Positions 6,477 to 26,878 of a stretch of DNA of 64,000 bases are shown piece by piece. The notes under the pieces are model-generated. The model was not told the origin of the DNA. It saw only the letters and a program-made list of their open reading frames with translations, and did no database searches. This DNA comes from an uncultured bacterium (GTDB lineage Bacteria > Bacteroidota > Rhodothermia > Rhodothermales > UBA10348), in NCBI GenBank assembly GCA_943788505.1, contig CALSQR010000002.1:569213-633212 (forward strand), written 5' to 3'. Made by a program: the position numbers and the translations under genes. Each line of letters begins with the position of its first letter. The stretch's first letter is position 1.

Positions 6477-6508
6477 TCAAGGTTGCCGGCAGTGCCGGTT
6501 GGTTGCGC

Positions 6509-6964: not shown

Positions 6965-7004
6965 GATACTGTCGGGCTGTGACGGAGGGACCGTCCGTTA
7001 CGGA

Positions 7005-7211: not shown

Positions 7212-7215
7212 ATTC

Positions 7216-7830: not shown

Positions 7831-8907
7831 CTACATATTGGCCAAACGATCAGCGTTTTCTGCCGTTCGTAGTGCTTTAAGGATATCGTCAATATCGCCG
7901 TTCATGACCTTCTCAAGCGCGTGATTCTTGTCATCGCCTTCCAATCTATGGTCAGTCACGCGCCCTTGGGGCCAATTATATGTCCTGATCTTTGCACTTC
8001 GGTCCCCTGTTGATACTTGCGACTTGCGTGCTTCACTTCGCTCAGATTCAATCTTCGCAAGTTCGAAGTCATACAGCCTAGATCGAAGAACACGCAGTGC
8101 TTTGTCCTTGTTTTTATGCTGACTCTTTTCGTCCTGACAGGTCACAACAAGTCCGCTTGGGATGTGCGTAATGCGGACAGCTGAGTCCGTAGTGTTGACG
8201 CTCTGCCCACCTGGGCCACTCGAGCGGTATACGTCGATCTTTAGATCATTTGGATGAATGTCGACATCTACTTCTTCCGCTTCAGGCAGGACGGCCACAG
8301 TGGCTGCCGATGTGTGGATTCTACCGCTCGACTCGGTCGCTGGAACGCGCTGAACGCGATGAACTCCAGACTCGTATTTCATCATACCAAACGCATCGGG
8401 TCCGCTGATACTGAAGACGATTTCCTTAAATCCTCCTTGCGTGCCAAGGCTAGTGCTGATCAACTCGGTCTTCCATCCCATTCGTTCCGCCACTCGCTCG
8501 TACAATCGGTATAGATCGCCAGCAAATAGAGCCGCTTCGTCTCCACCCGTACCAGCTCGTATTTCTATGATGGCATCCTTGGTGTCTTCGGGGTTCTTAG
8601 GGATGAGCATTAACCGAAGACCCGTCTCCATTCCAGGGAGGCTTGCCTGAAGCTCCTCCAATTCTGCTTTGGCCATCTCAACCAAATCATCTTCCTCACC
8701 GGAGGCAGCAAGTTCTTTCAGGTCATTGATCTCGTTGACCTGACCGAGATAGAGATCAATTTTCCTTACCACCTCCTTAAGAGATGAGTGCTCCCGGCCC
8801 AGATCCGCCATACGACGGGGATCCGTAGCTACTTCAGGATTCGACATTTCCTGATTTATATCCGCGAAACGACGTCGGAAGCTTTCGAGAATGTCAGGAT
8901 TGATCAT
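7831..8907 (-). CDS. prfA: Peptide chain release factor 1
   Basis: 358 aa with the GGQ motif (SGPGGQSVN), a PxT-type tripeptide (PAT) and the RF1 core sequence. Confidence 0.9.
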
Positions 8908-9164
8908 TGTCAGGGGAGTGATGAAGAAGGGCGATGTACGCGAGGTGGGGAAATTGGTTCAGGTCGAAACCTTGGATCAAGGTGAGACAGGAATTCGCAC
9001 TCTGAGACTCGAAATTCTGGAAATTTTATGGATTGATACGCAAAAAAGGGGAATCCCAACGTAATCCTCTTTGTGTCCGGTCCAAATTCTGAACTGGCAC
9101 GCTTTGTGCAATACGCAGATCGTCTGGACATCCGCTCACCGCCTACCTCGTATTTCGACGCGCC

Positions 9165-9560
9165 ATGCTCGCATCTCCCTACTACCGGATAACCACCAAC
9201 AACTCAGTTCGTGGAATCATCCTTTGGATGGTGACTTGTTTCACCGTTTTCTATGTCATTGACGGACTCGCAACGCGACCCAAAGGGGTTGAGGTTGAGA
9301 AATTCCGAAAAATGGGAATGAATGATGAGCAGGTATTGGCGATGGCATTGCAGAAGGCGAATGAATCAACGGAAGTAATGTGGTGGATCAACGACCGGGA
9401 AACCTACCTCGTATTTGATACGACCCGTGACTACCGAATCAGTGAGGCAACTCTCGTCGCCTTTGATTTAAAACTTGATCGGCGCAACGAATGGGGTATT
9501 GAGTCATCGACTCCCATCGCAGTATTCCGTCAAAAGGCAGCAGGAATCAGAGCCCCATAA
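9165..9560 (+). CDS. Hypothetical small protein
   Basis: 131-aa ORF with no recognisable motif; it may be a spurious call. Confidence 0.2.
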   Translation: MLASPYYRITTNNSVRGIILWMVTCFTVFYVIDGLATRPKGVEVEKFRKMGMNDEQVLAMALQKANESTEVMWWINDRETYLVFDTTRDYRISEATLVAFDLKLDRRNEWGIESSTPIAVFRQKAAGIRAP

Positions 9561-9624
9561 AGTTGGACGTGCATATCGGTCACATTCGATAGACCCAAGC
9601 ATGCAGCCTGCCTTCTCCCGCCAA

Positions 9625-11457
9625 CTACTCGACCGTTACGCTCTTGGCAAGATTGCGTGGCTGATCAACATCACATCCCCTCAAGACGGCAATGTGGTAC
9701 GAGAGTAGTTGCAATGGAATCACGGTCAGTAACGGACTCAGCAATTCAAGCGTCTTTGGGACATGGATGACATGTTCGCACAAATGATCAAGTTCTCCCG
9801 GCTCTGCATCTGTAACTACGATGACAACACCATCTCGGGCCACAACTTCTTCAATGTTTGAAACCACCTTCTCATAGGTACTATCCTTCATGGCCACGAA
9901 TACGACCGGCATAAACTGATCAATTAGGGCGATGGGGCCGTGCTTCATCTCAGCCGCGGGGTAGCCCTCTGCATGGATATAGGATATCTCTTTCAGTTTC
10001 AACGCTCCCTCGAGGGCCACAGGAAAGTTTGGACCTCGACCCAGATACAGAAAATTCGATGCGTATCGGAAAAGCTTTGCGATCGATTCGATGTTCTCTG
10101 CATTTTTCAGAACCGTCTTGATCTGGGCAGGAATAGCGCGCAGAGCCGTGACGTATTCACTCATTTGAGCATCATCAAGCGTGTTATTGCATCCCAGTCT
10201 AAGCGCAATCTGAGCAAGCACCGTTACTTGAGCGGTAAATGCCTTTGTTGACGCAACACCTATTTCAGGGCCTGCATGCAAGTAAACACCAGCATCTGTT
10301 TCGCGAGCGATCGTTGAACCGACCGTGTTGCAAATACCATACACCGGTACATTCTGACTCTGTGCCTCGCGAACTGCGGCTAGCGTATCTGCGGTTTCCC
10401 CACTTTGCGAGATAACAAGCACTGCATCGTCGGGACGAAGAATGGGATTGCGATATCGAAATTCGGACGCGTACTCCACTTCTACAGGGATCCTGACCAA
10501 TGATTCGATCAAGTATTCCCCAACAAGCGCCGCATGCCAGGATGTACCACAGGCACAAATGACAATGCGGGAGGCATTACGAAGGGACTCTACGGCATCC
10601 ATCAGACCACCAAGCTGGACCCAGGGCTCTGCGTCGTAGAGCCGTCCACGCATGGCATTTTCCAAGGAATCGGGCTGCTCCATGATTTCCTTGAGCATGA
10701 AATGCTCAAACCCGCCTTTTTCGATCTGCTCCAGATCCCACTCGAGTTCGTGAATCTTTTTGTTGAGCTTTACCTCGTCGACCGAAAACACCTTGAATCC
10801 GTTTCGGCGGATTACGACTAGTTCACCATCGTTCAAATAGACGACTTTGCGGGTGTATTCGATGATTGGAGCAGCATCTGAGCCCAAAAAGTATTCGTCT
10901 TCCCCTACACCTAGGATCAGCGGGGATCCCTTGCGCGCTGCAATCAACATGTCCGGATCATCCCTCGACACAAGCGCAATGCCATACGTACCATGCACCT
11001 GACTCAGTGCCTGACGAACCGCTTTCCCCAGGGAAAGACCCGTTCGCTTGTGGACGTCTTCAATCAGACGAACCAACACTTCCGTATCTGTCTGGGAAGA
11101 AAATGTGTAGCCACGCCCCGACAACATGTCTCTGAGCGATGTGTAATTCTCAATGATGCCGTTGTGAACGAGTGCAAACGAGCCATCTGTGCTCTCGTGT
11201 GGATGTGCATTTACGTCGTTGGGGGGTCCGTGAGTTGCCCAGCGAGTATGACCGATTCCGAGGCAGCCCCTCAATGGTGACTGATCAAGCGATTCAGATA
11301 GCTTCGCGATCTTGCCGCTTTTCTTTCGGACGGCTAGACCATCATTGACAATGGCTATACCCGCAGAGTCGTAACCACGGTATTCAAGCCGAGATAATCC
11401 CTTAATGAGAATCTCTTGAGCTTGACGCTCTCCGATATATCCTACGATACCACACAT
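9625..11457 (-). CDS. glmS: Glutamine--fructose-6-phosphate aminotransferase
   Basis: Starts MCGIVGYIG, the N-terminal Cys nucleophile. Two SIS domains and a C-terminal ...VDQPRNLAKSVTVE. The start was moved 10 codons inside the track ORF. Confidence 0.9.
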   Translation of the reverse strand: MCGIVGYIGERQAQEILIKGLSRLEYRGYDSAGIAIVNDGLAVRKKSGKIAKLSESLDQSPLRGCLGIGHTRWATHGPPNDVNAHPHESTDGSFALVHNGIIENYTSLRDMLSGRGYTFSSQTDTEVLVRLIEDVHKRTGLSLGKAVRQALSQVHGTYGIALVSRDDPDMLIAARKGSPLILGVGEDEYFLGSDAAPIIEYTRKVVYLNDGELVVIRRNGFKVFSVDEVKLNKKIHELEWDLEQIEKGGFEHFMLKEIMEQPDSLENAMRGRLYDAEPWVQLGGLMDAVESLRNASRIVICACGTSWHAALVGEYLIESLVRIPVEVEYASEFRYRNPILRPDDAVLVISQSGETADTLAAVREAQSQNVPVYGICNTVGSTIARETDAGVYLHAGPEIGVASTKAFTAQVTVLAQIALRLGCNNTLDDAQMSEYVTALRAIPAQIKTVLKNAENIESIAKLFRYASNFLYLGRGPNFPVALEGALKLKEISYIHAEGYPAAEMKHGPIALIDQFMPVVFVAMKDSTYEKVVSNIEEVVARDGVVIVVTDAEPGELDHLCEHVIHVPKTLELLSPLLTVIPLQLLSYHIAVLRGCDVDQPRNLAKSVTVE

Positions 11458-11552
11458 ACGAGGATGGGGAATGGACGGCCAACACAAAAGTCAGCCGTGA
11501 AGTAAGTTTTGCTGCATTATCTGCCTTTTTACCAGCAACAATCCTGCCGATT

Positions 11553-12581
11553 TCAGTCGGTTCTGCTAGGCATAGTTCGACCAACAGCCTTTGCGATATC
11601 TCTCACTTGTGACATGAGCTCATCGAACTGATCGAAAAAGAGAGATTGCGGACCATCGGAAAGGGCGACATCCGGATCAGGATGCACTTCGATCATGAGC
11701 CCGTCTGCTCCCGCAGCTACTCCAGCTCGTGCCATTGGCATGACCTTGTTTCGAAGCCCCGTGCCATGGCTGGGATCTACGATGATGGGGAGATGACTTC
11801 GGGACTTGATGACCGGCACTGCAGATAAATCGAGCGTATTCCGGGTATAGGGTTCAAACGTACGAATCCCTCGTTCGCATAAGACGACATTAGGATTGTT
11901 TTCTGCCAGAATGTATTCCGCGCTCATCAACCACTCTTTTATGGTTGCAGACAAACCACGCTTGAGAAGGACGGGCAGCCCTGTCTGGCCAGCAACTCGT
12001 AACAAGGGATAGTTTTGCATGTTGCGAGCTCCAATCTGAATCATATCGGCATACTGACCGATGACATCTGCCTGAGCTGGCTCCATCATCTCCGTGACCA
12101 CTTTCAGGCCATGAGCATCAGCCGCCTCTCGCATCATGATCAGGCCATTCTCCCCCAGACCCTGAAAAGCGTAGGGCGACGAACGAGGTTTGAAGGAGCC
12201 GCCACGTAAAATCGTTGCACCTGCCTTTGCGACTGCTGCAGCTGAAGAGTGGATCTGTTCTTCGGACTCTACTGAACAAGGCCCAGCCATTACGACGAGT
12301 TCGTTGCCACCAATAATGACGTCGCCAACTTTAGCCTCAGTGGGTTCACTTTTCCAGGCGCGGCTGGCAAACTTATACGGTTCAGAAACCCGATGAACAT
12401 CCGAGACGCCATCGAGCAATTCTATATGGCGTGGATCGAATTCGGGATGGACACCTACGGCACCCAATACGGTCCGTTCACTTCCACTGGATCGGTGAAC
12501 ATCAAATCCGTGATCATTTAGCGCCGCTATTACGGACTCGATCTGAGACTCATTGGCCCCGACCTGCATGACTACAACCAT
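11553..12581 (-). CDS. 3-deoxy-7-phosphoheptulonate (DAHP) synthase, class I-beta with N-terminal regulatory ferredoxin-like domain
   Basis: The core resembles the KDO8P/DAHP synthase family ([13 protein letters not shown]..., HPDPD). The N-terminal ~75 aa form an extra domain, as in Thermotoga-type DAHPS. Confidence 0.8.
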
Positions 12582-12586
12582 CAGGA

Positions 12587-13879
12587 CTACCCTCCGATCT
12601 GTACCAAATGGTACGATTTCTTGCCTTTGCGAAGCACAAACAACTCACCTTCGATAGCTTGATCGATCGTCATGCGAGCATTTTCATCTTCAATGCGCTC
12701 TCCATTGAGAAATAATCCTCCTTGTCGGATGAGCCGTCGGGCCTCACCATTTGATGAGGTGATCTCAGCCTGAGAGCATACGTCGAGCATTCCCATTCCC
12801 TCTCCTTCGAGGGCTTCCTTAGCTAACATGATCGATGGGACGTCCTCAAAAATGTCCCTCAAGTCCTTCACTCCTAGGTTTTCCATTGAGCCACCAAAAA
12901 GTACCTTCGAGGCCATCTCTGACTTCGCGAGCTCGCTCTCACCGTGCAGCGCTGTCGTGATATGGCGCGCCAGCGTTCGCTGCGCCTCACGAGCTCCTGG
13001 ACGCTCGTTCACTTCAGCCTCAAGGCCGTCAATCTCTTCGCGAGAGAGCCATGTAAAGGATTTTAGGTAGTGGATAACGTCGCGATCGTCCGTGTTCATC
13101 CAGAACTGATAGAACTTGTACGGAGACGTGAGTTCTGGATCGAGCCAAACGTTTCCAGCTTCGGACTTGCCGAACTTAGTACCGGATGCATTCGTGACGA
13201 GCGGGAAGACGAGACCGTGAGCCTTGTTACCATTCACCCGACGAATCAGATCTGTACCCGCAAGGATATTTCCCCATTGATCTGATCCACCCATCTGAAG
13301 CGAACAATCTCCACGCCGATTCAGCTCGAGGAAGTCATAGGCCTGTAGCATCATGTAGGTGAACTCCGTGTACGAAATACCATCTTCCGACTCGATCCGC
13401 CTTTTGACGGATTCTTTGGACAGCATGTAGTTCACGGTGAAATGCTTTCCCGTATCGCGCAGGAAATCGATCAGCTGCAATTGACCGAGCCAGTCATGAT
13501 TATTTTCGATGCGCGCAGGATTGCCTTCCCGTTCGAAGTCGAGAAAATGAGATAACTGGGCTTTGATGCCCGCAATATTCTCTTCGACTTTCTCCTTATT
13601 TAGCAGTTGACGCTCAGCCGTCTTTCCACTCGGGTCGCCAATAAGGCCGGTTCCTCCGCCAACTAGTGCAATCGGGGTGTGCCCAAAACGCTGTAGGCGC
13701 GCCAATCCCATGATGGGCAGTAAGGAGCCGACATGCAGGCTGGCTGCCGTAGGATCAAATCCGATGTAGGCCGTGACCGACTCTTTTGCGAGCAGGTCCT
13801 TCAGACCCGGCGTTGCATCGTAGAGCAAGCCCCGCCATTCGAATTCGTCGTAGATGTTGCCCTTGGCACTCATGGTCAC
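12587..13879 (-). CDS. tyrS: Tyrosine--tRNA ligase
   Basis: HIGH-type motif (LHVGSLLPI), KMSKS-type motif (KFGKS) and a C-terminal S4 domain. Confidence 0.9.
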   Translation of the reverse strand: MTMSAKGNIYDEFEWRGLLYDATPGLKDLLAKESVTAYIGFDPTAASLHVGSLLPIMGLARLQRFGHTPIALVGGGTGLIGDPSGKTAERQLLNKEKVEENIAGIKAQLSHFLDFEREGNPARIENNHDWLGQLQLIDFLRDTGKHFTVNYMLSKESVKRRIESEDGISYTEFTYMMLQAYDFLELNRRGDCSLQMGGSDQWGNILAGTDLIRRVNGNKAHGLVFPLVTNASGTKFGKSEAGNVWLDPELTSPYKFYQFWMNTDDRDVIHYLKSFTWLSREEIDGLEAEVNERPGAREAQRTLARHITTALHGESELAKSEMASKVLFGGSMENLGVKDLRDIFEDVPSIMLAKEALEGEGMGMLDVCSQAEITSSNGEARRLIRQGGLFLNGERIEDENARMTIDQAIEGELFVLRKGKKSYHLVQIGG

Positions 13880-13966
13880 GGAAGATTGTCGTTCGGAAAA
13901 TTAAGATGAACCGGCATTCCGGATCAAAAAATGGCCTTGTAGACCCTTGGAATCGAGGGCAGTTCC

Positions 13967-15031
13967 TTAGCGATATCGCTCAAGTCTGAAGTTTTCTCCA
14001 AGATAACGGCGGCGTACCTCCGGATCCGAGGCTAATGCTTCGGCCGTGCCTTGCTTGAGGATCATACCTTCGTAGAGCAAATAGGCACGATCTGTAATGG
14101 CAAGGGTTTCATGAACGTTATGATCTGTGATCAGCACGCCGATTCCTCGCTCTTTCAAGCGAGCCACTATAGACTGAATATCCTCCACTGCAATAGGGTC
14201 AACCCCTGCAAACGGCTCGTCCAGCAAAAAGAAGGATGGCTTTGTAGCCAACGCACGAGCAATTTCAGTCCGCCTACGCTCCCCACCGGAGAGCGTATAT
14301 CCTTTTGAATGTCGAACTTTTTCGAGGCCAAATTCGCGAATCAAGTCTTCAACCCGCTCCTTGCGGTCATTTCTCGAAATGTCTTGATACTCGAGGACGG
14401 CCGACAAATTCTCTTCCACACTCAGGTGGGAAAATATCGACGCTTCTTGAGCCAGGTATCCAATTCCACGCCGAGCCCTCTCATACATTGGAAGATCTGT
14501 GATGTCTTCGTCACCTAGACGGACTCTTCCTCCATCCGGACGAATCATTCCCACGATCATATAGAAGGTCGTCGTTTTTCCTGCTCCATTCGGACCAAGT
14601 AATCCAACGATTTCGCCTTGGCGGACAGTCAGTTCGATGGCTTTTACAACGGAACGCTTGCGATACCGCTTAATCAGCCCATCCGCTTTCAACTCCAGCG
14701 TACCTGGCGCAAACACTCTTTCCGGGGCCTCAAGCGACTCATGCATGGTCGTCGATTTACGAACAATCTCATCCATCACCGGATCGATAAGATGCTCTTC
14801 TCCCGGCCCAGCCGGAAGCACAGCACTATTGGGAATCATCCGATACGCCTGCCTCCAAGCGTTTACGGCTTTGTCTTCTTGTAATTCGGCTTCATACGCC
14901 TGGGCCAGCAGCACGTGTGCAATGACGTAGGTCGGCACCATTTCAACGAGGCCTTCCAACATGGGAATGGCCTTCCCAGGTTGCCCTGCCTTGAAATGCT
15001 CAAACGCCTGTTCTATTTCGCTCAGTGCCAT
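13967..15031 (-). CDS. lptB: LPS export ABC transporter ATP-binding protein LptB with ~100-aa N-terminal extension
   Basis: Walker A (GPNGAGKTT), signature motif (LSGGERRR), Walker B ([10 protein letters not shown]) and the LptB-like C-terminus. The N-terminal ~100 aa are TPR/helical-like, so the start could alternatively be the internal MHESL. Confidence 0.75.
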
Positions 15032-15080
15032 GGAGGCTGTGTTGTGCCAGTTGGACGATGAGAGATAATTGCTTTGAAAG

Positions 15081-16502
15081 TCATCTCGAAGAACTCACGG
15101 TCGTTCGCTCGAGATACGCATCCCAGAACTGGGCACCTGTGCGGCGCCGATTCGGGCGATCTTCAGGGGTGAAGATAAAGCCCGGCAGATTGGCGAGTTG
15201 ATCGAGGAGAGCCCCTGAATAATAGGTGCCCTCGACCCCCTCATAAAACGCGACTCGATCCAAGGCACCTGCCGTAAAGGTAAACGTCATGCCATCCCCT
15301 GATGCTTTAGCACCAACCGACCCTCCGTTTTCTTCAGATTCGAAAAAGAAAACAGCTTCCGCATTGTCCGAAATAGCCAAAGAGCGGAGAGAATCAGCGA
15401 CCATGACCGCTATTAGGGTCTGTCCCCTGAGTTGGTTTGTGCGTCCTGACATTGAATCTGGGGTAGCGACAAACACATTACCTACGCCAAAAATCGAGTC
15501 AGCTAGAGCGCCAGAGGTAATTCTAAGGTCGTCAGATCGCATCTGAGTATCTTGTACCCAAGCCATAGGTTGGCCAAAAATACGGGCTTCAGTACGATCA
15601 TTACTCGAATCCTGAGTGGTTAAGGAGTCCGCCCGAAGGTCATAGGAAGGGGCAGACACGACAACCGAATCAACCGCCGTCATACTCCCATCCGGTCGAA
15701 TCGTAAACCGGGATGCAACCATGAAAACCGAGTCTTGAGCGGCATCGTCTAGGCGGGCAAGTCGAGCCGAACCACTGACCACGACTAAATCCCTTCCAGC
15801 ATCCCTGAATAGCGAATCTGCTACCATAAAGACACGAATTGAGTCTTCCATGGATGCACGAAGCGCTGCAATATGCCCCCATGCCCACGATTCGCCTGAC
15901 TCTCTAAGATGCACGACTGAATCAGCATTCACCGTCATGTCCTCCTGTGTCAGGACCACTTGTTGAGAGAAGGTAGCCCTGTTTTCCTTCGACATATACA
16001 CTGCCTGTTGGGCAACGAGCGTCGCTGCACTGTCCTCATACGTCACACCGTCAACAAACGCTGTACGCTCCTCATTGGAGAAATAGGTGGCAGAAGGGGC
16101 ACGCAGAACTACCGACCCATCCGTCAGACTCACGTTACCCTCGGCCAAACCGATTTTCGTTTCCTTTTGGTACCGGACACGATCGGCGCGAATGGTATCA
16201 CCCTTTTCGATGATCTCGACATCACCCCAAAAACGGATAAAACCGGTACCCTCATCCATTCCATTCCGTGCTTTGAGTCGAAACTCATCCTGAATGAACA
16301 CGGGCCTGAGCCAATCTGAAATAGTTCTGTCCCCAACCGTTCTGACTGAAAGCGAATCGAAGCTCACTTGCACTTCTCTGGTTTCCTCTTGAGCTATCGA
16401 GGGCTGAGCTGTACCCAAGAAAAGGACCAACAGAGCACTTAAGGATCCGGTCTGCAATAATATGTGAGCTCGTCTATTCATCTTCGACAAGTACAGTACC
16501 AC
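15081..16502 (-). CDS. OstA/LptA-like periplasmic protein (enlarged)
   Basis: Signal peptide and a beta-rich 473-aa protein immediately upstream of lptB. The assignment rests on position and composition. Confidence 0.4.
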
Positions 16503-17043
16503 TCACTCTAGCTAGAGAGAAGTCAGCTAGATTCTCGTCTGCATCGAGACCATATCCTGAAAGCTGTTCAGTGGGTGTCGTAATGGTGGCAAAACCTGGA
16601 GTAGAAACACGGGCTGTGAGTTCTGACCAGGATAGGTGCTCGCTTTGAACACTGCGATCCGATCCGGAAAGAACCTGAACATCGCCTCGTGCCTCGAAAC
16701 GACGCGCTCGTTCTTGGTAGGTAATCTGCTGACTCGTAACGACAGCTGAGGTATCCCCATCAGCATCAAAAATTATGACGGTAACTCGGCCAATCTGCTC
16801 ATCAGCTCCAGAAAGTATCATCCACGTACTATCAGGCGTTTCCCACCGAGCCATATACTCCGCATTCATGGTCAGGCGTTGCTTTCCATCTTCCATGATT
16901 TGCATAGACGTATTCCAGCTCTCAGATGCCGGAGCGTTCTCCTCTTTGAGCGTCTGTACAGTCACGCCAGAATCGTGCATCCTGCAGGCCAGCGCCAGCG
17001 GAAGCAAAATTAGTAGAGTGGGTAGAGTACGTGCGAGGGTCAT
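16474..17043 (-). CDS. LptC-like protein
   Basis: 189 aa with an N-terminal anchor, upstream of and overlapping the lptA-like gene. The assignment is positional. Confidence 0.35.
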   Translation of the reverse strand: MTLARTLPTLLILLPLALACRMHDSGVTVQTLKEENAPASESWNTSMQIMEDGKQRLTMNAEYMARWETPDSTWMILSGADEQIGRVTVIIFDADGDTSAVVTSQQITYQERARRFEARGDVQVLSGSDRSVQSEHLSWSELTARVSTPGFATITTPTEQLSGYGLDADENLADFSLARVSGTVLVEDE

Positions 17044-17106
17044 ATGAAAGCAGTCAAGAGTTCGTCAGATGATACGCAGCCAGATAATACACTTTCTCGT
17101 TGGACA

Positions 17107-17976
17107 CTATAGTTGCAGCATTTCTCCTGGCAGCGCAATACCCCAGTTCGACGTGGCAGCCGATGATGTTTCGGCTAGCAAAGTGGCAAACCGATCACAC
17201 GTCTCTTCTAGGGACATAACAGGACCATCGCTAATCGGTGCATATATAGCTGCGGCCACATTGTTGCTTTCGGTTGTTGTTTTCGTCGCCTGAGAGTCTT
17301 TAACAGCATTCACTATCGGGCGGTCCATATCGTTTCCGCTCGAAGCACACCCGACAATCAGATCACACAATGAAATATCCTGACCTGTCGAATTAAATAC
17401 ATAGGATTCATCGTCCTTCCCAAGACGGAAAATGAATTCCGTCGTTGCCGCCAAGTCGACATCCCAAATAGAAATAGGTAACAAGGAGGCTAGGCTTAAC
17501 CCGTTGCAGCAATCCACTAATGCATTGATTCGAGGAAACGCTGATTCAGATGCTGCGCGCAGCAAGTATTCCGAAGCCGGCTTTGCTCTACCCGTAGGTT
17601 TGTACAAACCATTCCGAAATACATCCCGAATGAGTTTTCGGTACTCATCTTGTGCGGGAGACAATCCTGCAGCCCTCTCCTTGAGGGTTTCTTCGATCAA
17701 CTGCTCCAAACCAGGAAGCACTGCGCTCGCCGTAACCCCTTGAGCAACTACTATTCCAAGGCGAAGAGCCTCTGGTCCATCGTGGTGAAATTGAAGTGCC
17801 ATCGAGTCGGTATATTGAGTGAGGGGACAGATGTAGCATTGAACGGCGTCGATGAAACGTGTTTCCCTTCGAGAGATGCTCTGTTTGCCCCCTTGAACAT
17901 GCTTTAGTTTACACCGGGTTAGCCGATAATCAACCCTGATACTTAGTGTAAAACAAGCACACCACTGGTTATGCAA
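17107..17976 (-). CDS. B3/4 (tRNA-binding-like) domain protein
   Basis: The segment NALVDCCNGLSLASLLPISIWDVD resembles the B3/4 domain core (N-LVD--N-VSL--G-P-H-FD-D). Confidence 0.5.
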   Translation of the reverse strand: MHNQWCACFTLSIRVDYRLTRCKLKHVQGGKQSISRRETRFIDAVQCYICPLTQYTDSMALQFHHDGPEALRLGIVVAQGVTASAVLPGLEQLIEETLKERAAGLSPAQDEYRKLIRDVFRNGLYKPTGRAKPASEYLLRAASESAFPRINALVDCCNGLSLASLLPISIWDVDLAATTEFIFRLGKDDESYVFNSTGQDISLCDLIVGCASSGNDMDRPIVNAVKDSQATKTTTESNNVAAAIYAPISDGPVMSLEETCDRFATLLAETSSAATSNWGIALPGEMLQL

Positions 17977-18324
17977 GCGACAACAATGAACTTTCTAATC
18001 GAACCGATCACGCACGATACTATCGTGATCAGGGTCGGAAAGGCCCTAGATTTCCGCAATGCTGCGGATTTCAAAGCAGCAGCCCAGGAGCAAGTCCGCA
18101 ATGGAATCAGGAGCTTTGTTCTGGATTTCACTGATACTGGCATCTTGGATTCGACGGGTCTTGGATCCATCTTTTCCCTCTATCGCCAGGTCTCTCCTAT
18201 GAGTGGCCAGGTAGTATTCGCATCTGTTTCCCGACCGGTACAGGTCGTCGTGCAGTTGACTCGCACCTATAAGGTATTCCGTCAATTCCCGTCTGTGGAA
18301 GCTGCTCGCGAAGCGCTACGATAG
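17971..18324 (+). CDS. STAS-domain anti-sigma-factor antagonist (SpoIIAA/RsbV-like)
   Basis: 117 aa with a DFTDTGILDSTGLG region, the putative phosphorylatable Ser in the DSTGLG context. Confidence 0.75.
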   Translation: MQATTMNFLIEPITHDTIVIRVGKALDFRNAADFKAAAQEQVRNGIRSFVLDFTDTGILDSTGLGSIFSLYRQVSPMSGQVVFASVSRPVQVVVQLTRTYKVFRQFPSVEAAREALR

Positions 18325-18364
18325 ATCCCTCTGATTTAACCACTCAGTTTTCTACCCGGAAAAC

Positions 18365-18781
18365 ATGGAAGTCACCAGACAAAACTTCAATCATCTGGAT
18401 GCTGTGATTGACGAGCTGCATGCACTCTTCGAGTCGTGGGAGCAGGAGGACGCACTGCTTTCTCATCTCGATCCGAATACGATTCAGCTTTTCCGTCTTG
18501 CCGTTCATGAATGGGTGGCTAACCTAGTTCAGCACGCGGATTTTACTGATCGCGAACCGGAACTCGTCTTGGATGTGATTCCGAATGGCCAGCGCGTCCG
18601 CTGCGTAATTGAAGACAATTCTGAAGGATTCGCTTTTCCAGAACAACTGGATGTCCAGCGAAGTGCCTTGACCCCCTTCCCCGAACGTGGAATGGGACTC
18701 CTCATGCTCAACGCCGCAACTGAGTATTTCGAATACTCTGAGACCGATGATGGTCGTCGGCGCCCTGAGTTCACCGTTTGA
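18365..18781 (+). CDS. Anti-sigma regulatory factor / serine kinase (RsbW/SpoIIAB-like HATPase)
   Basis: N-box-like EWVANLVQH and G-box-like ERGMGLLML, in a 138-aa protein. Confidence 0.7.
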   Translation: MEVTRQNFNHLDAVIDELHALFESWEQEDALLSHLDPNTIQLFRLAVHEWVANLVQHADFTDREPELVLDVIPNGQRVRCVIEDNSEGFAFPEQLDVQRSALTPFPERGMGLLMLNAATEYFEYSETDDGRRRPEFTV

Positions 18782-18795
18782 GCTGATGCAGACCA

Positions 18796-19985
18796 ATGGC
18801 TCAACATTCCATTCTCATAGTAGAGGATGAGCACACCCTGCGTCGGCTCTTAGAGTACCGACTGGGCAAGCAGTATGACGTCCGTACCGCATCGAATGGC
18901 GAAGAGGCCATCGAGCGTGTCAACGAAGAACTGCCAAACCTCATCATTTCCGACATCATGATGCCTAAAATGGATGGCTTTGCCTTGCAGGCAGCCCTCC
19001 AGGAAAGGCAAGACACCCGGGCTATCCCGTTCATCTTCTTGACTGCCAAAGCGGATGAGACCAGCCTCCTTAAAGGCCGTCGTACAGGTGTAGACGATTA
19101 CATCACAAAACCCTTTGACATTGACCAGTTGTTATCAAGGGTAGACCGACTGCTCGATCGCACGGCGATGTTCCAAAATCAGTTGGATGCGAAGATTGGA
19201 CATGACTTCTCGCAGAAACTGATGCCCAAAAACTCCCTGACGTACCTGGCTATCGGGCATGGTTCCACACATCACCTCGTGAACACGGTGGTGGGGATAT
19301 CTTTGACTGGACTCAACCACGTCCGGGCACCTATTTCATCACAATTGGTGATGTCATGGGCAAAGGCCTTCAGGCCAAATTTTACGCCTTTAGCTTCCTT
19401 GGCTACATCCGTTCGACGCTACACACGATGTTGCAGACAACAGACTCGCCAGCTGAACTGATGAAGCGGGTGAATCAAGTCCTTATGGATGATCCACCAC
19501 TTGAGGACACATTCGCATCCCTCCTGCTCCTGCGATGGGAGCCTGAGCGCAATCTAATCACCTATGCAAATGCGGGACATTGCCGCCCAGTCCTGATTGG
19601 ACCGCGCGGACCAGAAATTGTCACGTATTCAGACATGATTCTGGGTCTTGATGAGGATGCTGAATTCAAGGACACGTCTATCATTATGCAACCGGGCTCT
19701 GCCTTAGTCTCTTACACAGACGGACTGCTCGAACAGAACATGAACTCGGGCGAACAGCTCGGCGAAGATAGCGTCATGAAAGCCGTATCCGGAGCATTCG
19801 GAAATGGTCACCCTGTCGACCGGTTGATCAGCAATGTGCTTGATGACAGCGCGGTCCGAGAGTTCGGCGATGACATCCTGCTCTTCTGGCTCGAACGCGA
19901 AACGTCCAGAGAAAGGGAAAGGCCTACGCCTCGCTGGTTTTCTCCCTTCGGAGAAGGACGCGAGTCAGGAGCGAGTACAGTATGA
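18796..19985 (+). pseudogene. Response-regulator receiver + PP2C (SpoIIE/RsbU-like) phosphatase, interrupted by a 1-nt frameshift in an A5 run
   Basis: The receiver domain (ILIVEDEHTL...DIMMPKMDG...) is in frame 1 up to QKLMPKN. The PP2C part (LPDVPGYRAWFHTSPREHGGGDIFDW...GDVMGKG...) continues in frame 0 from 19206. The switch point is cccaaaaactccc at 19225-19237, and one extra A restores a 397-aa protein. Confidence 0.7.
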
Positions 19986-19987
19986 AT

Positions 19988-20021
19988 AATGCGCGCCGGT
20001 TTACCGGCGCGCATTTTCTTT
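19988..20021 (+). terminator. Rho-independent terminator
   Basis: Perfect 12-bp stem aatgcgcgccgg / ccggcgcgcatt with a ttta loop and a T-rich tail, right after the stop codon. Confidence 0.65.
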
Positions 20022-20177
20022 ATGTGGGTCTCCATCGTTTATCACCTTGCGCAGATCACCTACCCCCCTCGACATTTCAGGCCCCAATTATATCAGGACA
20101 CAGCAAACCATTGAATTTGCTACCTGAATTGCTGTTAATTGCACCCTGAATAGAAGCATGAGTCGAGCTCATATCTG

Positions 20178-20660
20178 ATGCGACGTAAAACGCCAACCAT
20201 TCCCTTAGTCGCCTTTCTAGTTGCAGGCCTCCTGGTCTCCGGCTGTCGCGATTATGCGTTCGACCCCGATGGATCAGCATCACCAACGCGGAATGGTCTT
20301 GTTATCGCCCCAGTGGGTATTCCTTTTGAAGTGGCATATGGCCAAAGCGTTGCTCTGGAAGGAACCGAGTTAGCAATCGAATTTTCGTATGTAGCCGAGG
20401 ATAACAGGTGCGCTAGCAATGTAGACTGCGTTCAAGCGGGCCGAGCAGGCGTCGTCCTGACCCTCACTGACAGTCAGAATGTTCGCTATCAACTTGTGGC
20501 ACATATCCCTGGGCTGGTTGCGACCCCATACCAAGTCAATGACTTAATTCAATTCGACGGGCTCCGATTTCAACTGTTGGAGGTAAGTCCATATCCTCTC
20601 AATGGTGTCGAGCGCGAAGTCAAGGATTATTCGGTGCTGCTGTTGGTCGATTCCCTCTGA
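20178..20660 (+). CDS. Hypothetical lipoprotein
   Basis: Signal peptide with a lipobox (LLVSGC); 160 aa. Confidence 0.4.
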   Translation: MRRKTPTIPLVAFLVAGLLVSGCRDYAFDPDGSASPTRNGLVIAPVGIPFEVAYGQSVALEGTELAIEFSYVAEDNRCASNVDCVQAGRAGVVLTLTDSQNVRYQLVAHIPGLVATPYQVNDLIQFDGLRFQLLEVSPYPLNGVEREVKDYSVLLLVDSL

Positions 20661-20834
20661 GACATGAACGTTCAAAGGCGTTTAGACCAGTAGATGCAGG
20701 ATTTATAGATCTAGACGCTTCACGCTGGATAACCAGATGATTCACGGCTTCTTCCCCCTCCCTGATGCCTGCTAGGGCAATTTACTGCGTATTTTTGATG
20801 TTCTGAATCGAATCACCAATCTCACGATACGTCC

Positions 20835-21266
20835 ATGGCCATCGAACGTACCCTTGCCATACTCAAGCCGGACTGCGTCCGCAAAAACCTGATCGGCAAA
20901 GTAGTCGCCCACATCCAGGAAGCTGGCTTCACCGTCCGCGCAATGAAGTTGGTTCAGCTCTCCCGAGCAGAAGCAGAAGGCTTCTATGCTGTTCACAAGG
21001 ACCGCCCGTTCTTCGGTGAGTTAGTTGATTTCATGACATCCGGCCCATGCGTCCCGATCGTCCTCGAAAAAGAGAATGCAGTTGCAGACTACCGCACGCT
21101 TATTGGCGCTACGGATCCTGCAGAAGCAGAAGAGGGTACGATCCGGAAACTGTACGCTGACAACAAGGGCCAGAACATTGTCCACGGATCGGATTCCGTA
21201 GAGAATGGCCGGCTGGAGTCGAACTATTATTTCCCGGAATTCGAAATCATCAACAACGCAGGCTGA
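20835..21266 (+). CDS. ndk: Nucleoside diphosphate kinase
   Basis: [10 protein letters not shown], the active-site His region NIVHGSDS and the YYFPEFE C-terminus. Confidence 0.9.
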
Positions 21267-22542
21267 CCTCGTCACCCTAGTTGCAGCCGTCATCTTGGTA
21301 ACAGGATGGACCGCTTGTGATATTCCCAGTGGCGGAGCGGATCGATCGATCCGCTCCGCCACTGTCGTTCATACCGGTGCTGATGTCCTCGTAGCATCCG
21401 GATTCGAAGCACTTGACGGTATGCAGGTGGGGTTGATTGTAAACCACACCTCACGATCGGGAGAAAATCATCTCATCGACCTGATGGATGCAGCACCCAA
21501 CGTGGAGGTAGGCGCCCTTTTCGGACCGGAGCATGGAATCCGCGGGGATGAAGATGCTGGGGCAGTCATTGATGATGGCGTGGACGATGCAACCGGAGCG
21601 CCTGTCTACAGTCTGTATGGGTCGGTGCGACGCCCAACACCTGACATGATGCAGGGCCTAGATGCCCTCATTTTCGATATTCAGGATGTCGGTTCGCGTT
21701 TCTATACATTCATCTCCACCATGGGTCTCTCGATGCAGTCTGCTGCAGAGGCAGGTGTCCCATTTGTCGTCTTGGATCGGCCCAACCCTCTGGGAGGGGT
21801 CAGGATGGAAGGATTTGTCCGTGACTCTTCCCTCGTTTCCTTCGTCTCACAGTACCCGATCCCAGTCCGTCACGGCCTCACCGTCGGCGAACTCGCACAG
21901 ATGATCCGAGGAGAAGGTTGGATTCCAGGCATAGAAGAGCTCGACCTTCGCGTAATACAGATGTCAGACTGGAACCGGGACATGATGTGGCCTGAGACCG
22001 GATTAGAATGGATTCCCACTAGTCCCAATCTTCCTACCTTCGAATCAGCTCTTATTTATGCTGGAACGTGTTTTATTGAGGCTACGACCGCAAGTGAAGG
22101 ACGTGGCACGCCATTACCTTTCCTCACGATCGGTGCGCCTTGGTTAGATACAGAGGCTTTAGTAAACGACCTAGACCAATGGGAGCCGGAAGGAGTCAGT
22201 TTCAAAGCAGGCTCCATAACTCCAATCAGTATTCCCGGCGCCTCCACGAATCCAAAATGGAAGGATGCAGCTATCCAAACGTTGCAAATTAAGGTGATTC
22301 AGCCGGACTCGGTCCATGCAGTGTCCTTGGGGCTTGATCTAGTGGCGCGTATGTATGCACTCGCTCCCGATTCTGCGAAGGCAGACTTCTTCAATGAGCG
22401 ATGGATGGCTTTGCTTTCTGGTTCTACCCAGACGGTTGACCTGCTGAAAGGCGGAATGGATCAGTCTGCCTTTGAATGGACGTGGCGGGATGATATCGAA
22501 CGCTTTGCTGCGTTACGAACGTCCTACCTGCTCTACGACTAA
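21205..22542 (+). CDS. DUF1343-family protein (NamZ-like exo-beta-N-acetylmuramidase)
   Basis: Contains VNHTS...[10 protein letters not shown] and a lipoprotein-like N-terminus (LVTGWTAC). The track start overlaps ndk by 62 nt, so the true start is probably a non-ATG codon downstream. Confidence 0.6.
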
Positions 22543-22835
22543 GCGCTTTCAGCTTGCTGGCTTGAAGTAGCCTTAGGGCGCCACAAAATGGCCCAGATGA
22601 TTTCGAGATACCCTCCCAGAATTAGAACGGGAGCGATATACAACGAAATAAATCCATCAACTTGGTTATCCATCCGCATGATCACGTAGCCGCCGATGAT
22701 CATGACAAGCCCGATGATCAGCAGAACGTAGTTTTTCTTCTGAAAAACCATAGCGCTTCGCTTTCGGCCCTGGCGGGAACGCCGCGAAGGGCGGTTGCGG
22801 TTCGATTGTGATTTCCGGTCGGCCATAGCCGTCAT
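22539..22835 (-). CDS. Small membrane protein (2 TM), hypothetical
   Basis: 98 aa with a basic N-terminus followed by two hydrophobic helices. Confidence 0.3.
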   Translation of the reverse strand: MTAMADRKSQSNRNRPSRRSRQGRKRSAMVFQKKNYVLLIIGLVMIIGGYVIMRMDNQVDGFISLYIAPVLILGGYLEIIWAILWRPKATSSQQAESA

Positions 22836-22998
22836 TCAGACTGGTTGCGGAGGAGATTCAATGGGTAATGTCGGGCTTCGCCTGCACGCACTCCCTCGTT
22901 GCCCCTCCAAAACACTCGCCCCAAGTGCAGGTTCCTCTACCAATTTTCTGTTTTTTGCCCCGATCGGGTTCGTAGATTGCGAACCCATCCAATACACC

Positions 22999-23469
22999 AT
23001 GCCTGCATTTCTACGCATTTTCCTGACGGGCCTCGGCATCTTCCTGATCCAATGGCTCATTCTTGGACGTCTCACACTATGGGGCGCCTTCCCTGATGCC
23101 GTATTGCTTTTCGTGGCGTGGCTAGGCGTTCGGAAAGGACGCCAGTGGGGCGCAGTAGGCGGGTTCGTCTTCGGATTCCTGATGGATGCAGTCTATGACA
23201 CGTGGGGACTACATATGCTGGTTAAGACGCTAATTAGCTTCACCCTAGGGCTGTTTCCCAGTTCAGAACGGGAAGGCCTGCTGATCCTTCCAAGACAGGC
23301 TTTGCTGGGTGGCTTAGTGGTTGCGTTGGTCCATAACGGCATTTTTGTGACGATGCTAGCTCTTCAAGCTGGAGCCCGAAACGCCTTCTTGGTTACTGGA
23401 CTGTGGATTGGCTCGGCCATCTACACCGCCTTCCTAGGCACGTTTACATCGCTTTTTTCCTATCGTTGA
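22999..23469 (+). CDS. MreD-like rod-shape membrane protein
   Basis: Start set at MPAFLRIF. Multi-TM protein with a ...GFLMDAVYDTWGLHML... pattern typical of MreD. No mreBC is adjacent. Confidence 0.45.
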   Translation: MPAFLRIFLTGLGIFLIQWLILGRLTLWGAFPDAVLLFVAWLGVRKGRQWGAVGGFVFGFLMDAVYDTWGLHMLVKTLISFTLGLFPSSEREGLLILPRQALLGGLVVALVHNGIFVTMLALQAGARNAFLVTGLWIGSAIYTAFLGTFTSLFSYR

Positions 23470-23645
23470 TGGTTACCGGTTTATGGAAAGGCGTTCAACT
23501 GCCTCGAATGGCCCTCATCTCGTGAATTGATCGTGGATCGACTGACCCTACCCAAGTAGACAGTTGCCTTCCGCCCGTGAAAGAGTGTATTTTTGCGGCT
23601 TGCTTCCCAAGTTTGGCCCTTCGTCGGCCATCCTATGAGGTATCT

Positions 23646-23718
23646 GGGGCTATAGCTCAGCTGGTAGAGCGCTTGAATGGCATTCAAGAGGTCAGCGGTT
23701 CGACTCCGCTTAGCTCCA
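23646..23718 (+). tRNA. tRNA-Ala (anticodon GGC)
   Basis: Cloverleaf GGGGCTA-TA-GCTCAGCTGGTAGAGC-G-CTTGA-ATGGCAT-TCAAG-AGGTC-AGCGGTTCGACTCCGCT-TAGCTCC-A, with a G3:U70 pair. CCA is not encoded. Confidence 0.9.
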
Positions 23719-23723
23719 CATTT

Positions 23724-23763
23724 TGATCCCGCATCAGAATTGATCCCGCATCAAAATTGATTC
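23724..23763. repeat. Tandem 17-bp direct repeat (2.3 copies) immediately 3' of tRNA-Ala
   Basis: tgatcccgcatcagaat / tgatcccgcatcaaaat / tgattc. Confidence 0.5.
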
Positions 23764-24065
23764 TGCCTTGGTAACCCTAACCTGCTGACTAACAGCGAGT
23801 TGGGGTTTTTTACTATCAGAAGATCGTGGTGAGTAACAACTCATCGTGTACGCTCCGTATGGGGTCCTCAACAAATACTACCGCTTGCGCCCAGACGCCA
23901 TGCTATGAGTATCTTAGTCCACTTCAAGTGCGTTGCGCAGGTGTCGTTAGCCGTCTTGCCGCACCACAAACATCTGCGTTGCGAGGGCAAACGTCAATTC
24001 TAAGCGCCCTTACCCCGTGCATTTGTTGATGGGAGATGGTATTGTACGATCGAACCTAGCACATC

Positions 24066-24602
24066 GTGGCAAATCCATCACATATCGCACAACTGGACCA
24101 GGGCATTTTGTCCTGGAACCAATGGAGAGAAGCACATCCTGATGTGGTCCCGGATTTGACCGGAGCTGACCTCACGGGGCGGATGCTGCAAGGGATTAAT
24201 TTATCCGGTGCTAACCTCAAGGGAACGCTCTTTACAGTCGCTGAGCTAGAAAAAGCGAATCTCGACCGCGCTGACCTGAGTGGAGGTAACCTTACCGGTG
24301 CGGATCTAAGCCAATTGACGGCCCGATCTGCCATTTTTATTGGTGTTGACCTGAGCTATGCCACTCTAACTTTTGCGGACTTCTCCAATTCCGACTTCAC
24401 CGGATGCCGATTCTCCGAGGCTATTCTGTTTAACACGGTGCTCAAGAATGCTAAAATGATCGGAACGCATTTCCGAGAAACCATTCTAACCGGCTGTGAC
24501 TGCTCTGGGGCTATTTTTACTGACGCCCATCTGATCGATGTGAGCATCGAAGGGGCGATCATGCCAATTGACATGCCCAAGATTTACCGCTCGGAAGACT
24601 GA
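24066..24602 (+). CDS. Pentapeptide-repeat protein
   Basis: Repeating A(D/N)L(S/T)G pentapeptides (ADLTGADLTG..., ANLKGT, ADLSGGNLTGADLSQ). Confidence 0.75.
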   Translation: MANPSHIAQLDQGILSWNQWREAHPDVVPDLTGADLTGRMLQGINLSGANLKGTLFTVAELEKANLDRADLSGGNLTGADLSQLTARSAIFIGVDLSYATLTFADFSNSDFTGCRFSEAILFNTVLKNAKMIGTHFRETILTGCDCSGAIFTDAHLIDVSIEGAIMPIDMPKIYRSED

Positions 24603-24655
24603 GCTCGTCACCTGTCTGAGACGAATGGATAGCGATAGGAAAGGCCTGTTACCGG

Positions 24656-26878
24656 TTAACGAATGAACGTATAGGTGTATTTCAGCAGGACGGTCCGATT
24701 GCGGGAAACGGGCAATGCCGGTGACTCCCGGAAACGATCAGAATTAAGGTTTTCCGTATACACGATCCAAAGATCATTGCCTTCTGCCATATTGTAACGG
24801 AACCGCACATTTGACGCAATAATATTGGATGATGTGTTGTACTGAACGAACGAATTGAGTGCCAACTTAGTGTTCAGCCCTATCTGGCTGCGTACTCCGA
24901 CCAAATGGATGTTTGCCGTTTGATCCCTATCCGGAAATTCAAGCCGTGTAAACTGGTAGCTCCCTGCTAGTTCAAGAAATCTATTTACGTTCCATGTCGG
25001 GTCGAACGAAATACCATAGCGCCAACCATCAAAAAATGAACCGGCATCAACAGATGTACTTCCTCTGAATAGGCTCCCATCAGCCATTGAATACCTAGCC
25101 TCCCATTCGACATATTCATGACGCCCCGCAGGAACGGATGTGTTTCCCGGAAATGAGAGTGGTTCGAGCAAATCCTCGATCAGAAAATTAGCACTGGATC
25201 TCGCGGACGCACCTGTTTTGAAATCAAAATCCCAGCTTGCTCCTGCGCGCAACGATTCGAGCGAACCGTCCTCATTTCTGAGGTAGATACTGCCGTAGGT
25301 GGACCCGTCATGAGTCTTCAACGCTGCTTCGTCCGAAAGCAACCAGCCATACTGAACGTCCCATGAGTACTGAGTAAAGTCTGTTCGCTGAACGAAACCA
25401 ATTCCCGGATTAAAGTCACGCCCAGAACGCGTTACCCCGGAGCGATAGGACCAACCAATATCTGTGCGGCGCTGTAACTGAGCCGAAGCAAAAGAGGCAT
25501 CGACGAAATCGAACCCATTCGCATCAATTAGATCATCATCAAAGGTCTGCGAAAACTTCAGATCCAGATATTCGAATCCACCCAATTTGAATGTACCGTC
25601 GGTACCATAGGCAAAATTCCACGACCCGTCATCGCCCAGCCGACTTGTGGCAAGAACACCTGCGAAAGACTTATCATTCACTACCCGGCGACGCAATCGG
25701 ACCACACCAAAGTTCTCTGAAGGCTCTCCGCCGGAAGCTTCGGTCTGCATATCAATCACGCCTAGGTCCCACATACCAACGCGTCCCACCACACGACCAC
25801 CGCCAAGAATTCGCACGGTTCCGCCGTCGTTGATGCCGATTTGTCTACTGTGAAAAAGGCGGTCCCTACGTCCTGTAGAAAATTCAAACAAGCCCGATCG
25901 TTCTTGAAAAAATTGCCTTTTCTCGGGGAAAAACAGGGAAAATCGTGATAAATTAACCTGCTGATCATCAGCCTCTACTTGGGCAAAATCTGTATTGATC
26001 GTCCCGTCGAAGGTCAGATTACTGTTGAAAGCATACTTAAAGTCCAATCCGGCCTGCCTAGTCAGATCGTTGGAGAACTCATAGTCTGTTTCAGCTTCAT
26101 TCAGTGAGTTCACACCCGTGCTACCGCCGGTTACGTACGGTGTCACGTAAAAGGGCTTCTGACTTTCAATGCCCTCAAGCATAACTTTTGCTGCTTGAGA
26201 GGGCTTCGCAAAACCCAAGCTCCAGTTCGGCGGAATGAGTGGATAGATCTGCCGCTCGCTTTTGCGTGAGATGTAACGATAGGCAATCATGCCCATCACC
26301 ACTTGCCCGTTCTCCTCTTGGAAAGAAAGACTAGAAAAAGGGATCCGCATTTCAGCAAACCACCCCTCCTCATTTCGTACCGTTTTGACATCCCAAAATG
26401 TATTCCATGAACTGTTGATGGCTCCTCCACCGAAGGATCCACCTCCATAGCCATTAGCATCGTCTGAAATGGCATAGTCAAACCGTACACCCGTTGGCGA
26501 AGTGTAAAACCAAAGCGCATTCTCGTTGTCATTAAACGAATCTAACACAATGGCAAAGGTGTCATCGCCCGAATATCTGTCCCGGTAGAGCGTGTTAGCG
26601 CGTATTTGATCTGGTTCGGAGTCGTACATCCTGCCGCCTACGTATATGAAATCATTGTCGTAGGCCACTCGTATCTCGGTACGCTCTGTCATCTGCCCAC
26701 CCGAAACGGGCTCGTACATCTGAAGAGGCAAAGGCTCTATAGCCTGCCAAGCCGCTTCGTCGGGCATTCCATCTAAATCGATAGGCCCAGCGAGACGAGA
26801 AAGTAAGGTTGGGACTTGGGCCTGAGCCGCTCCAGTCACTAGTAGGAACAGCAGCAAGAAGCCAAAAATACGGGACAT
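24656..26878 (-). CDS. Large secreted/outer-membrane protein, DUF5916/CBM9-like
   Basis: Signal peptide (start moved to MSRIFGFLLLFLLVTGAAQAQ) followed by ~730 aa of beta-rich sequence with an aromatic C-terminus. The family assignment is tentative. Confidence 0.4.
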   Translation of the reverse strand: MSRIFGFLLLFLLVTGAAQAQVPTLLSRLAGPIDLDGMPDEAAWQAIEPLPLQMYEPVSGGQMTERTEIRVAYDNDFIYVGGRMYDSEPDQIRANTLYRDRYSGDDTFAIVLDSFNDNENALWFYTSPTGVRFDYAISDDANGYGGGSFGGGAINSSWNTFWDVKTVRNEEGWFAEMRIPFSSLSFQEENGQVVMGMIAYRYISRKSERQIYPLIPPNWSLGFAKPSQAAKVMLEGIESQKPFYVTPYVTGGSTGVNSLNEAETDYEFSNDLTRQAGLDFKYAFNSNLTFDGTINTDFAQVEADDQQVNLSRFSLFFPEKRQFFQERSGLFEFSTGRRDRLFHSRQIGINDGGTVRILGGGRVVGRVGMWDLGVIDMQTEASGGEPSENFGVVRLRRRVVNDKSFAGVLATSRLGDDGSWNFAYGTDGTFKLGGFEYLDLKFSQTFDDDLIDANGFDFVDASFASAQLQRRTDIGWSYRSGVTRSGRDFNPGIGFVQRTDFTQYSWDVQYGWLLSDEAALKTHDGSTYGSIYLRNEDGSLESLRAGASWDFDFKTGASARSSANFLIEDLLEPLSFPGNTSVPAGRHEYVEWEARYSMADGSLFRGSTSVDAGSFFDGWRYGISFDPTWNVNRFLELAGSYQFTRLEFPDRDQTANIHLVGVRSQIGLNTKLALNSFVQYNTSSNIIASNVRFRYNMAEGNDLWIVYTENLNSDRFRESPALPVSRNRTVLLKYTYTFIR

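Follow-up and report, generated by a model that had tools for sequence, protein, structure and literature searches.

A reproducible one-base frameshift in a receiver-PP2C phosphatase gene, with a second hit in the partner kinase gene, in one near-clonal lineage of an uncultured Rhodothermales bacterium

A gene for a receiver (REC) domain followed by a PP2C phosphatase domain is found in two reading frames in the window, the whole stretch of 64,000 nucleotides from contig CALSQR010000002.1 of an uncultured Rhodothermales bacterium that was analysed here. The question is what the split means. A preliminary description, made from the letters alone, had offered a sequencing error in a homopolymer, a recent inactivation, or a slippage-prone tract acting as a phase switch.

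Translation of window 18600-20200 showed that the REC ORF starts at ATG 18796 in frame 1, reads MAQHS...QKLMPKN and stops at 19459-19461. Frame 0 is open from 19206, after a TGA at 19203-19205, reads ...QKLPDVPGY...GGDIFDW...GDVMGKG... and ends at the TGA stop 19983-19985. After its opening, the PP2C frame reads ...QKLPDVPGYRAWFHTSPREHGGGDIFDW...GDVMGKG.... The sequence and translations thus bore out the description of REC in frame 1 up to QKLMPKN and PP2C in frame 0 from 19206. The PP2C frame is -1 relative to the REC frame, with the junction at the A5 run 19228-19232. When the intact conspecific protein P0001 was used as the tblastn query, its residues 1-146 matched frame 1 at 18796-19233, and residues 145-396 matched the other frame at 19227-19982. 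The shift was placed inside the A-run because the two segments of P0001 meet there, and the run is the sole place where homology crosses between the frames. The two frames had been said to overlap only at 19225-19237; both are in fact open across 19206-19461, and the shift is located at the tract by homology.

The addition of one A gave a REC-PP2C protein of 396 aa, one residue fewer than the 397 aa first counted. Pfam Response_reg matched residues 6-116 of this repaired protein (E 5.6e-27), and Pfam SpoIIE/PP2C matched residues 177-368 (E 1.2e-35, profile positions 2-191 of 192), so the seamless two-domain protein predicted from one inserted A was recovered. The strong terminator noted just past the gene end (at 19988-20021) was also confirmed, with its stem at 19988-20015 and a T-rich tail. 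The features of the split gene are as follows.

18796-19233, + strand: 5' part of the REC-PP2C gene in the original frame, comprising REC, the helical linker and the beginning of the conserved QKLMPK motif (residues 1-146).
19228-19232, + strand: A5 run in which the single base was lost; in the intact allele the run is A6, read as codons AAA AAA (K145 and K146).
19234-19461, + strand: out-of-frame tail of the frame-1 ORF, 75 nonsense residues (SLTYLAIGHG...RQLN) with the stop at 19459-19461; the product is P0121, 221 aa.
19233-19985, + strand: 3' part of the REC-PP2C gene in the -1 frame, with the complete SpoIIE/PP2C catalytic domain and the conserved C-terminal PRWFSPFGEG tail.
19988-20025, + strand: intrinsic terminator closing the operon, with a 12-bp stem (19988-20015, 9 of 12 pairs G-C), a 4-nt loop and a T-rich tail.

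Public annotations also carry a 55-aa ORF at window 19982-20149, which overlaps the PP2C stop codon (ATGA) and spans the entire terminator hairpin. It is probably a spurious gene call because the whole hairpin of the operon terminator lies inside it.

The homology search with the repaired protein returned P0001 and more than 100 further two-domain proteins. P0001 is 396 aa long, is 99% identical to the repaired protein over its full length and was found on 20 contigs. Both Pfam domains were present in one protein of 327-493 aa in 120 of the 120 best homologues listed. The uninterrupted REC-PP2C frame that the sister lineage and every listed homologue have is lacking in the window. In each of the six closest GTDB loci (L009-L014) one continuous match spans both domains, and at the DNA level L009-L012 stay in frame across the junction site. 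The best GTDB representatives are Rhodothermales/Bacteroidota MAGs with 80% amino-acid identity, and Salinibacter showed 58%. An exact 40-mer scan that allowed either A5 or A6 gave zero matches in the GTDB species representatives and JGI metagenome contigs, so the species is apparently missing there in this exact form and its placement in Rhodothermales comes from the orthologues of up to 80% identity. The A-run does not occur in related species, where the same two residues are encoded by AAG AAG, AAA GAC, AAG AAT or AAG AGC. Because the listed homologues are two-domain proteins and L009-L012 are in frame through the site, the fused REC-PP2C gene is taken as the ancestral form. The orthologues, whose comparison had been proposed at the outset, are single in-frame genes and not two separate genes. 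The reverse order of events, with A6 as a secondary repair of an ancestral A5, was rejected by parsimony, as all outgroups are in frame without the run.

The missing A could be a homopolymer error of sequencing or assembly in the source of the window, with the gene intact in the organism. Single-base homopolymer indels are typical of long reads, and the same-lineage contig L007 has two private homopolymer indels elsewhere. However, A5 was found in the window and in six assemblies from six samples (L007 and L089-L093). By the style of their contig names, L089 and L090 are of the SPAdes type, L092 and L093 of the MEGAHIT type and L091 of the Logan type, whereas L007 has a plain "contig_N" name. 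A5 is thus repeated in five SPAdes-, MEGAHIT- or Logan-named assemblies from different samples. The exact 221-aa frameshifted product P0121 was found on 33 contigs from four sources (NCBI, JGI, Logan and ENA), the longest of which is 2.84 Mb. In the collection, 78 blocks index the frameshifted product and 26 index the intact protein. Between the window and the same-lineage contigs that bear short-read-assembler names, there were zero indels over an overlap of approximately 17.6 kb (1-15308 and 18994-21325). A5 also co-segregates with substitutions, including a nonsense SNP, which homopolymer artefacts cannot make. An error in the source therefore has next to no chance of being the explanation. 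The A5 frameshift is genuine and an assembly artefact is excluded, because A5 recurs across samples and assemblies and the same-lineage contigs agree without an indel. The error proposed in the preliminary description is rejected on the six independent assemblies, the 33 contigs and the indel-free 17.6 kb.

The private indels of L007 (ERZ10646634 contig_16492) are located at window 20196 (CC→CCC) and 20754 (C5→C4), and one of them cuts the 160-aa ORF 20178-20660 to 115 aa. Unlike the reproducible A5, they look like true assembly errors.

The A6 allele was found in ten sister-lineage loci (L001-L006 and L099-L102; 20 contigs). The sister lineage with A6 is approximately 99.7-99.9% identical to the window at the DNA level. 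This close intact relative, together with the single in-frame orthologues, supports the recent inactivation that had been among the first proposals.

With both tract lengths present in public data within the same species, the A5/A6 run could be a reversible phase-variation (contingency) switch on the phosphatase, and slipped-strand mispairing classically uses homopolymers. The haplotypes argue against this. At positions 18780, 18898, 19155, 19770 and 19926, the A5 haplotype is G/G/C/A/A and the A6 haplotype is C/A/T/G/G in every locus covering those sites. All 17 sequences that span the site, the window counted, show tract length in perfect linkage with four or five flanking SNPs. The two recombinant products (window haplotype with A6, other haplotype with A5) were absent from an exact-sequence look-up among approximately 15 billion proteins, and none of the samples examined gave both alleles. 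Phase-variable homopolymers are usually approximately 7 nt or more, and a tract of 5-6 nt is below the usual length. The tract is also not conserved in related species. A switch is accordingly highly improbable, and the suggestion of a slippage-prone tract found no support. Because the SNP linkage is perfect and both recombinant products are absent, the data point to one historical deletion rather than a phase switch.

The deletion hits the conserved ...DFSQKLMPK(K)LP... motif, which closes the REC-PP2C linker directly before the catalytic domain. The upstream product keeps REC and the linker whole and adds the 75 out-of-frame residues; its junction with the frameshifted tail reads ...LMPKNSLTYLAIGHG.... 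The receiver pocket residues E10, D11, D53, T83 and K105 are present and invariant across 14 aligned sequences, and the REC domain has no derived amino-acid change in the window lineage. The PP2C motifs GGDIFD, GDVMGKG, YTDG and GDDIL are present in the -1 frame. In the same 14-sequence alignment, D168, D171, D186, G189, D309 and G310 of the PP2C domain are invariant, and D359 and D360 are nearly invariant. One phosphatase change, G326S, is derived in the window lineage, the glycine being kept in 13 of the 13 other aligned sequences.

The GGDxFD and GDV motifs hold metal-binding aspartates in PPM phosphatases. No ATG, GTG or TTG was found in the phosphatase frame from 19206 to 19356; the first is ATG 19356 (M188), the Met within GDVMGKG. 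A stand-alone PP2C from an internal start was considered and set aside, as the lack of a canonical start before 19356 would give a product without GGDxFD and GDV. Public gene calls list "SpoIIE" fragments of 185 or 209 aa, both of which lack these motifs. Because any fragment product would be without GGDxFD and GDV, the first two metal-binding motifs, the phosphatase is probably non-functional in the A5 lineage.

The gene may be down-tuned rather than dead if leaky or programmed -1 ribosomal frameshifting, or transcriptional slippage, occurs at CCC-AAA-AAC. A -1 slip after AAA would read AAA-CUC-CCU and give ...MPKKLPD..., the same as in the intact protein, so that the recoded junction would read ...LMPKKLPDVPGYR...; low-level -1 slippage on C_AAA_AAC could possibly regenerate the exact wild-type protein. 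The PP2C frame is still fully open with its catalytic motifs intact. However, an open frame is expected anyway of a very young pseudogene. The zero frame is AUG CCC AAA AAC, and C_AAA_AAC breaks the canonical X_XXY_YYZ at its first position. The RNA of 19215-19330 (116 nt) folded at -32.3 kcal/mol, no better than its shuffles, which averaged -31.0 (z = -0.37). Transcriptional slippage becomes appreciable at A/T runs of approximately 8 or more, and A5 is shorter. The A-run is missing in orthologues and all listed homologues are in-frame fusions, so there is no sign of an evolved signal. Recoding is therefore very unlikely to keep the gene in use.

A STAS gene, a HATPase_c_2 gene and the REC-PP2C gene, in this order, make up a three-gene operon on one strand, the classic set for partner switching with a phosphatase of the response-regulator (RsbY/RsfR) type. 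The position of STAS and HATPase_c_2 directly upstream of REC-PP2C is conserved in L009-L014. The features upstream of the REC start are as follows.

17971-18324, + strand: STAS anti-sigma-factor antagonist gene, RsbV/SpoIIAA-like, 117 aa (Pfam STAS, E 4.7e-16).
18365-18781, + strand: HATPase_c_2 gene, RsbW/SpoIIAB-like anti-sigma factor/serine kinase (Pfam HATPase_c_2, E 4.1e-10), 138 aa in the window.
18779-18781, + strand: premature TGA in the RsbW-like kinase gene; TCA (Ser139) in the sister lineage and outgroups L009 and L010.
18782-18820, + strand: 3' remnant of the kinase gene, now untranslated (ADADQWLNIPFS plus TAG); it codes for the conserved C-terminal tail and shares 25 nt with the start of the REC ORF.

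The STAS gene is intact and the same in both lineages, with a DSTGLG motif that holds a candidate phospho-serine. Its NCBIfam matches to anti-sigma factor antagonists fall under the curated cut-offs. Neither a sigma factor nor a cognate histidine kinase was found in the gene lists of the operon or its immediate flanks. For the fused REC-PP2C protein, NCBIfam gave no specific family, with sub-threshold REC matches only. The PDB sequence search gave receiver-domain matches only, including P. aeruginosa RssB (3EQ2) through REC alone.

The kinase gene carries a second change. The RsbW-like kinase is 151 aa long in the sister lineage (L001-L006 and L099-L102) and 149-151 aa in five orthologues; in the sixth orthologue, L014, the listed ORF is longer and carries the same tail. 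At position 18780 the window and L007 carry G; the sister-lineage loci that include the site all carry C. Because the sister lineage and outgroups L009 and L010 have TCA, S139* is taken to be derived in the window lineage. It removes a 13-aa kinase tail whose motif SADxDxWLNIPF is kept in six Rhodothermales orthologues, including Salinibacter. The overlap of the kinase tail with the REC start (22-25 nt) is likewise kept in six orthologous operons down to Salinibacter. The 138-aa kinase still holds nearly all its Pfam domain, and may still work. This linked kinase stop at 18779-18781 had escaped the preliminary description.

The split could itself be functional, the N-terminal product (REC, linker and the novel 75-aa tail) persisting as a free-standing receiver that might serve as a phosphate sink or bind and regulate other proteins, with only the phosphatase output lost. 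Bacteria often have single-domain receivers. Here the REC domain is whole, has all residues of the phospho-acceptor pocket and carries no derived amino-acid change in this lineage, and the wide occurrence of the A5 lineage shows that the allele is tolerated, if nothing more. However, there is no sign of selection on the 75-aa tail, and loss of the module accounts better than re-wiring for the concurrent nonsense mutation in the partner kinase. A retained receiver of this kind is decidedly unlikely, and it overlaps the best explanation as regards the phosphatase half.

The best explanation, which we consider very probable, is a genuine and recent conversion of the phosphatase gene into a pseudogene, fixed in the lineage and accompanied by a second hit to its partner kinase; one near-clonal lineage is thus losing an RsbV/RsbW/RsbY-like module that its sister retains. 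The ancestral AAA-AAA run (Lys145-Lys146) at the PP2C start has lost one A. Translation from the REC start now continues for 75 codons out of frame and ends at 19461. In the same lineage, TCA→TGA in the adjacent kinase gene strips the conserved 13-residue tail, and G326S has also arisen there. Both genes are whole in the sister lineage and in all orthologues. Without the phosphatase, the STAS protein would stay phosphorylated after the kinase acts, and the output would be locked in one state. Judging from the sequence, phospho-STAS would no longer be reactivated by the phosphatase route. The sign of the effect on the downstream target would depend on whether the truncated kinase still works. 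The partner-switching module as a whole is probably decaying or selected against; death of the whole module falls short of proof because the Pfam domain is almost entirely present in the 138-aa kinase, which may still work.

The differences between the two lineages are concentrated at this locus. Thirteen fixed lineage differences were found in window 8796-21325 (12.5 kb), and 6 of the 13 lie within 1.15 kb (18780-19926). A related count of 22 events over 21.2 kb gave a Poisson P of approximately 0.0004-0.0014. Among the clustered six, G35S and the synonymous change at L120 arose in the intact lineage, and A378T could not be polarised. The SNP cluster is only partly due to relaxed constraint because changes arose on both lineages; relaxed constraint alone was rejected as the cause, as two of the clustered changes belong to the intact lineage. 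A small recombination import or selection at the locus is possibly behind the cluster.

The frameshift, the kinase nonsense change and G326S could be repeated hits from positive selection to shut the module, with its loss having helped the A5 lineage to spread. The A5 lineage is found in approximately three times as many collection blocks as the intact lineage. We regard this adaptive reading as unlikely; if true, it would be a natural case of adaptive loss of stress signalling in an uncultured environmental bacterium.

The A5 lineage is at least 99.96% identical across samples. Over 6-12.5 kb (window 1-15308 and 18994-24985), contigs from at least 10 samples showed 0-5 substitutions and no indels, so the lineage is near-clonal. 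A look-up with the S6 protein returned A5-lineage contigs only; it shows clonality and the absence of indels and is uninformative on divergence. The intact lineage has several sub-haplotypes, with variable sites at 10053, 17141, 17302, 18419, 18686 and 20295.

Several known systems resemble this module. RsbY of Bacillus cereus is the REC-PP2C phosphatase of the RsbK-RsbY/RsbV-RsbW-SigB partner-switching pathway (PMC4574943). Both proteins have an N-terminal CheY-like receiver and a PP2C/SpoIIE domain, beside genes for a STAS antagonist and an RsbW-like HATPase_c_2 protein. However, the Rhodothermales protein is not a close sequence relative of RsbY and reaches no NCBIfam equivalog, its operon and immediate flanks encode no sigma factor or cognate histidine kinase, and the window gene is frameshifted. 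RsfR of Mycobacterium smegmatis is a REC-PP2C phosphatase that dephosphorylates the anti-SigF antagonist RsfB (PMC10950880). It shares the domain architecture and the two-component input onto a partner-switching phosphatase, whereas the window copy is inactivated. Phosphorylation lowers the activity of RsfR and raises that of RsbY.

RssB of Pseudomonas aeruginosa and E. coli has REC plus a PP2C-like domain (PDB 3EQ2/3F7A; PMC12143880). As in the gene of the window, a helical linker joins its receiver to a PPM-fold domain; the frameshift in the window lies where this linker ends. Similarity to RssB at the sequence level is confined to REC. The phosphatase domain of E. coli RssB is degenerate and the protein serves as a ClpXP adaptor, whereas the Rhodothermales ancestral form has all catalytic motifs.

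Natural loss of such phosphatases has precedents. The 11-bp deletion in rsbU of Staphylococcus aureus 8325 is a natural loss-of-function allele (PMC3786944). SigB-deficient S. aureus within hosts (PMC6748969) and loss of the SigB pathway in evolved Listeria (bioRxiv 10.1101/2022.02.23.481730) are further cases. These cases share with the window a small indel in an activating PP2C phosphatase that is fixed in one lineage while sister strains keep the gene, and rsbU/SigB-type pathways are lost again and again where their cost outweighs the benefit. These are cultured Firmicutes with known phenotypes, whereas the Rhodothermales lineage is known from assemblies alone and has a second hit in the kinase/anti-sigma gene. 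The event is ordinary in kind and new in organism, and is no surprise to a specialist.

For annotation, the ORFs 18796-19461 and 19356/19428-19985 should be recorded as one frameshifted REC-PP2C pseudogene, where public gene calls now list a stand-alone response regulator and a short SpoIIE protein, and the 138-aa kinase should carry a truncated flag. The two lineages are a natural strain pair of approximately 99.7-99.9% identity, one intact and one doubly hit. This pair gives a handle on the function of the Rhodothermales STAS/HATPase_c_2/REC-PP2C module, which is widespread in the order yet uncharacterised. The case also indicates that a short-homopolymer frameshift in a metagenome-derived genome can be shown to be real from public assemblies alone.

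Downstream of the operon, a 34-nt perfect palindrome (GTGGCGGAGCGGATCGATCGATCCGCTCCGCCAC) is located at window 21328-21361, in the 5' end of a NamZ-like ORF (21205-22542) just past a lipoprotein-like signal peptide. Several Logan contigs terminate exactly at this palindrome. In the sister-lineage contig L099/L001, a replacement that is 5 nt shorter occupies the palindrome centre, and as a result the signal peptide and the enzyme body are in different frames.
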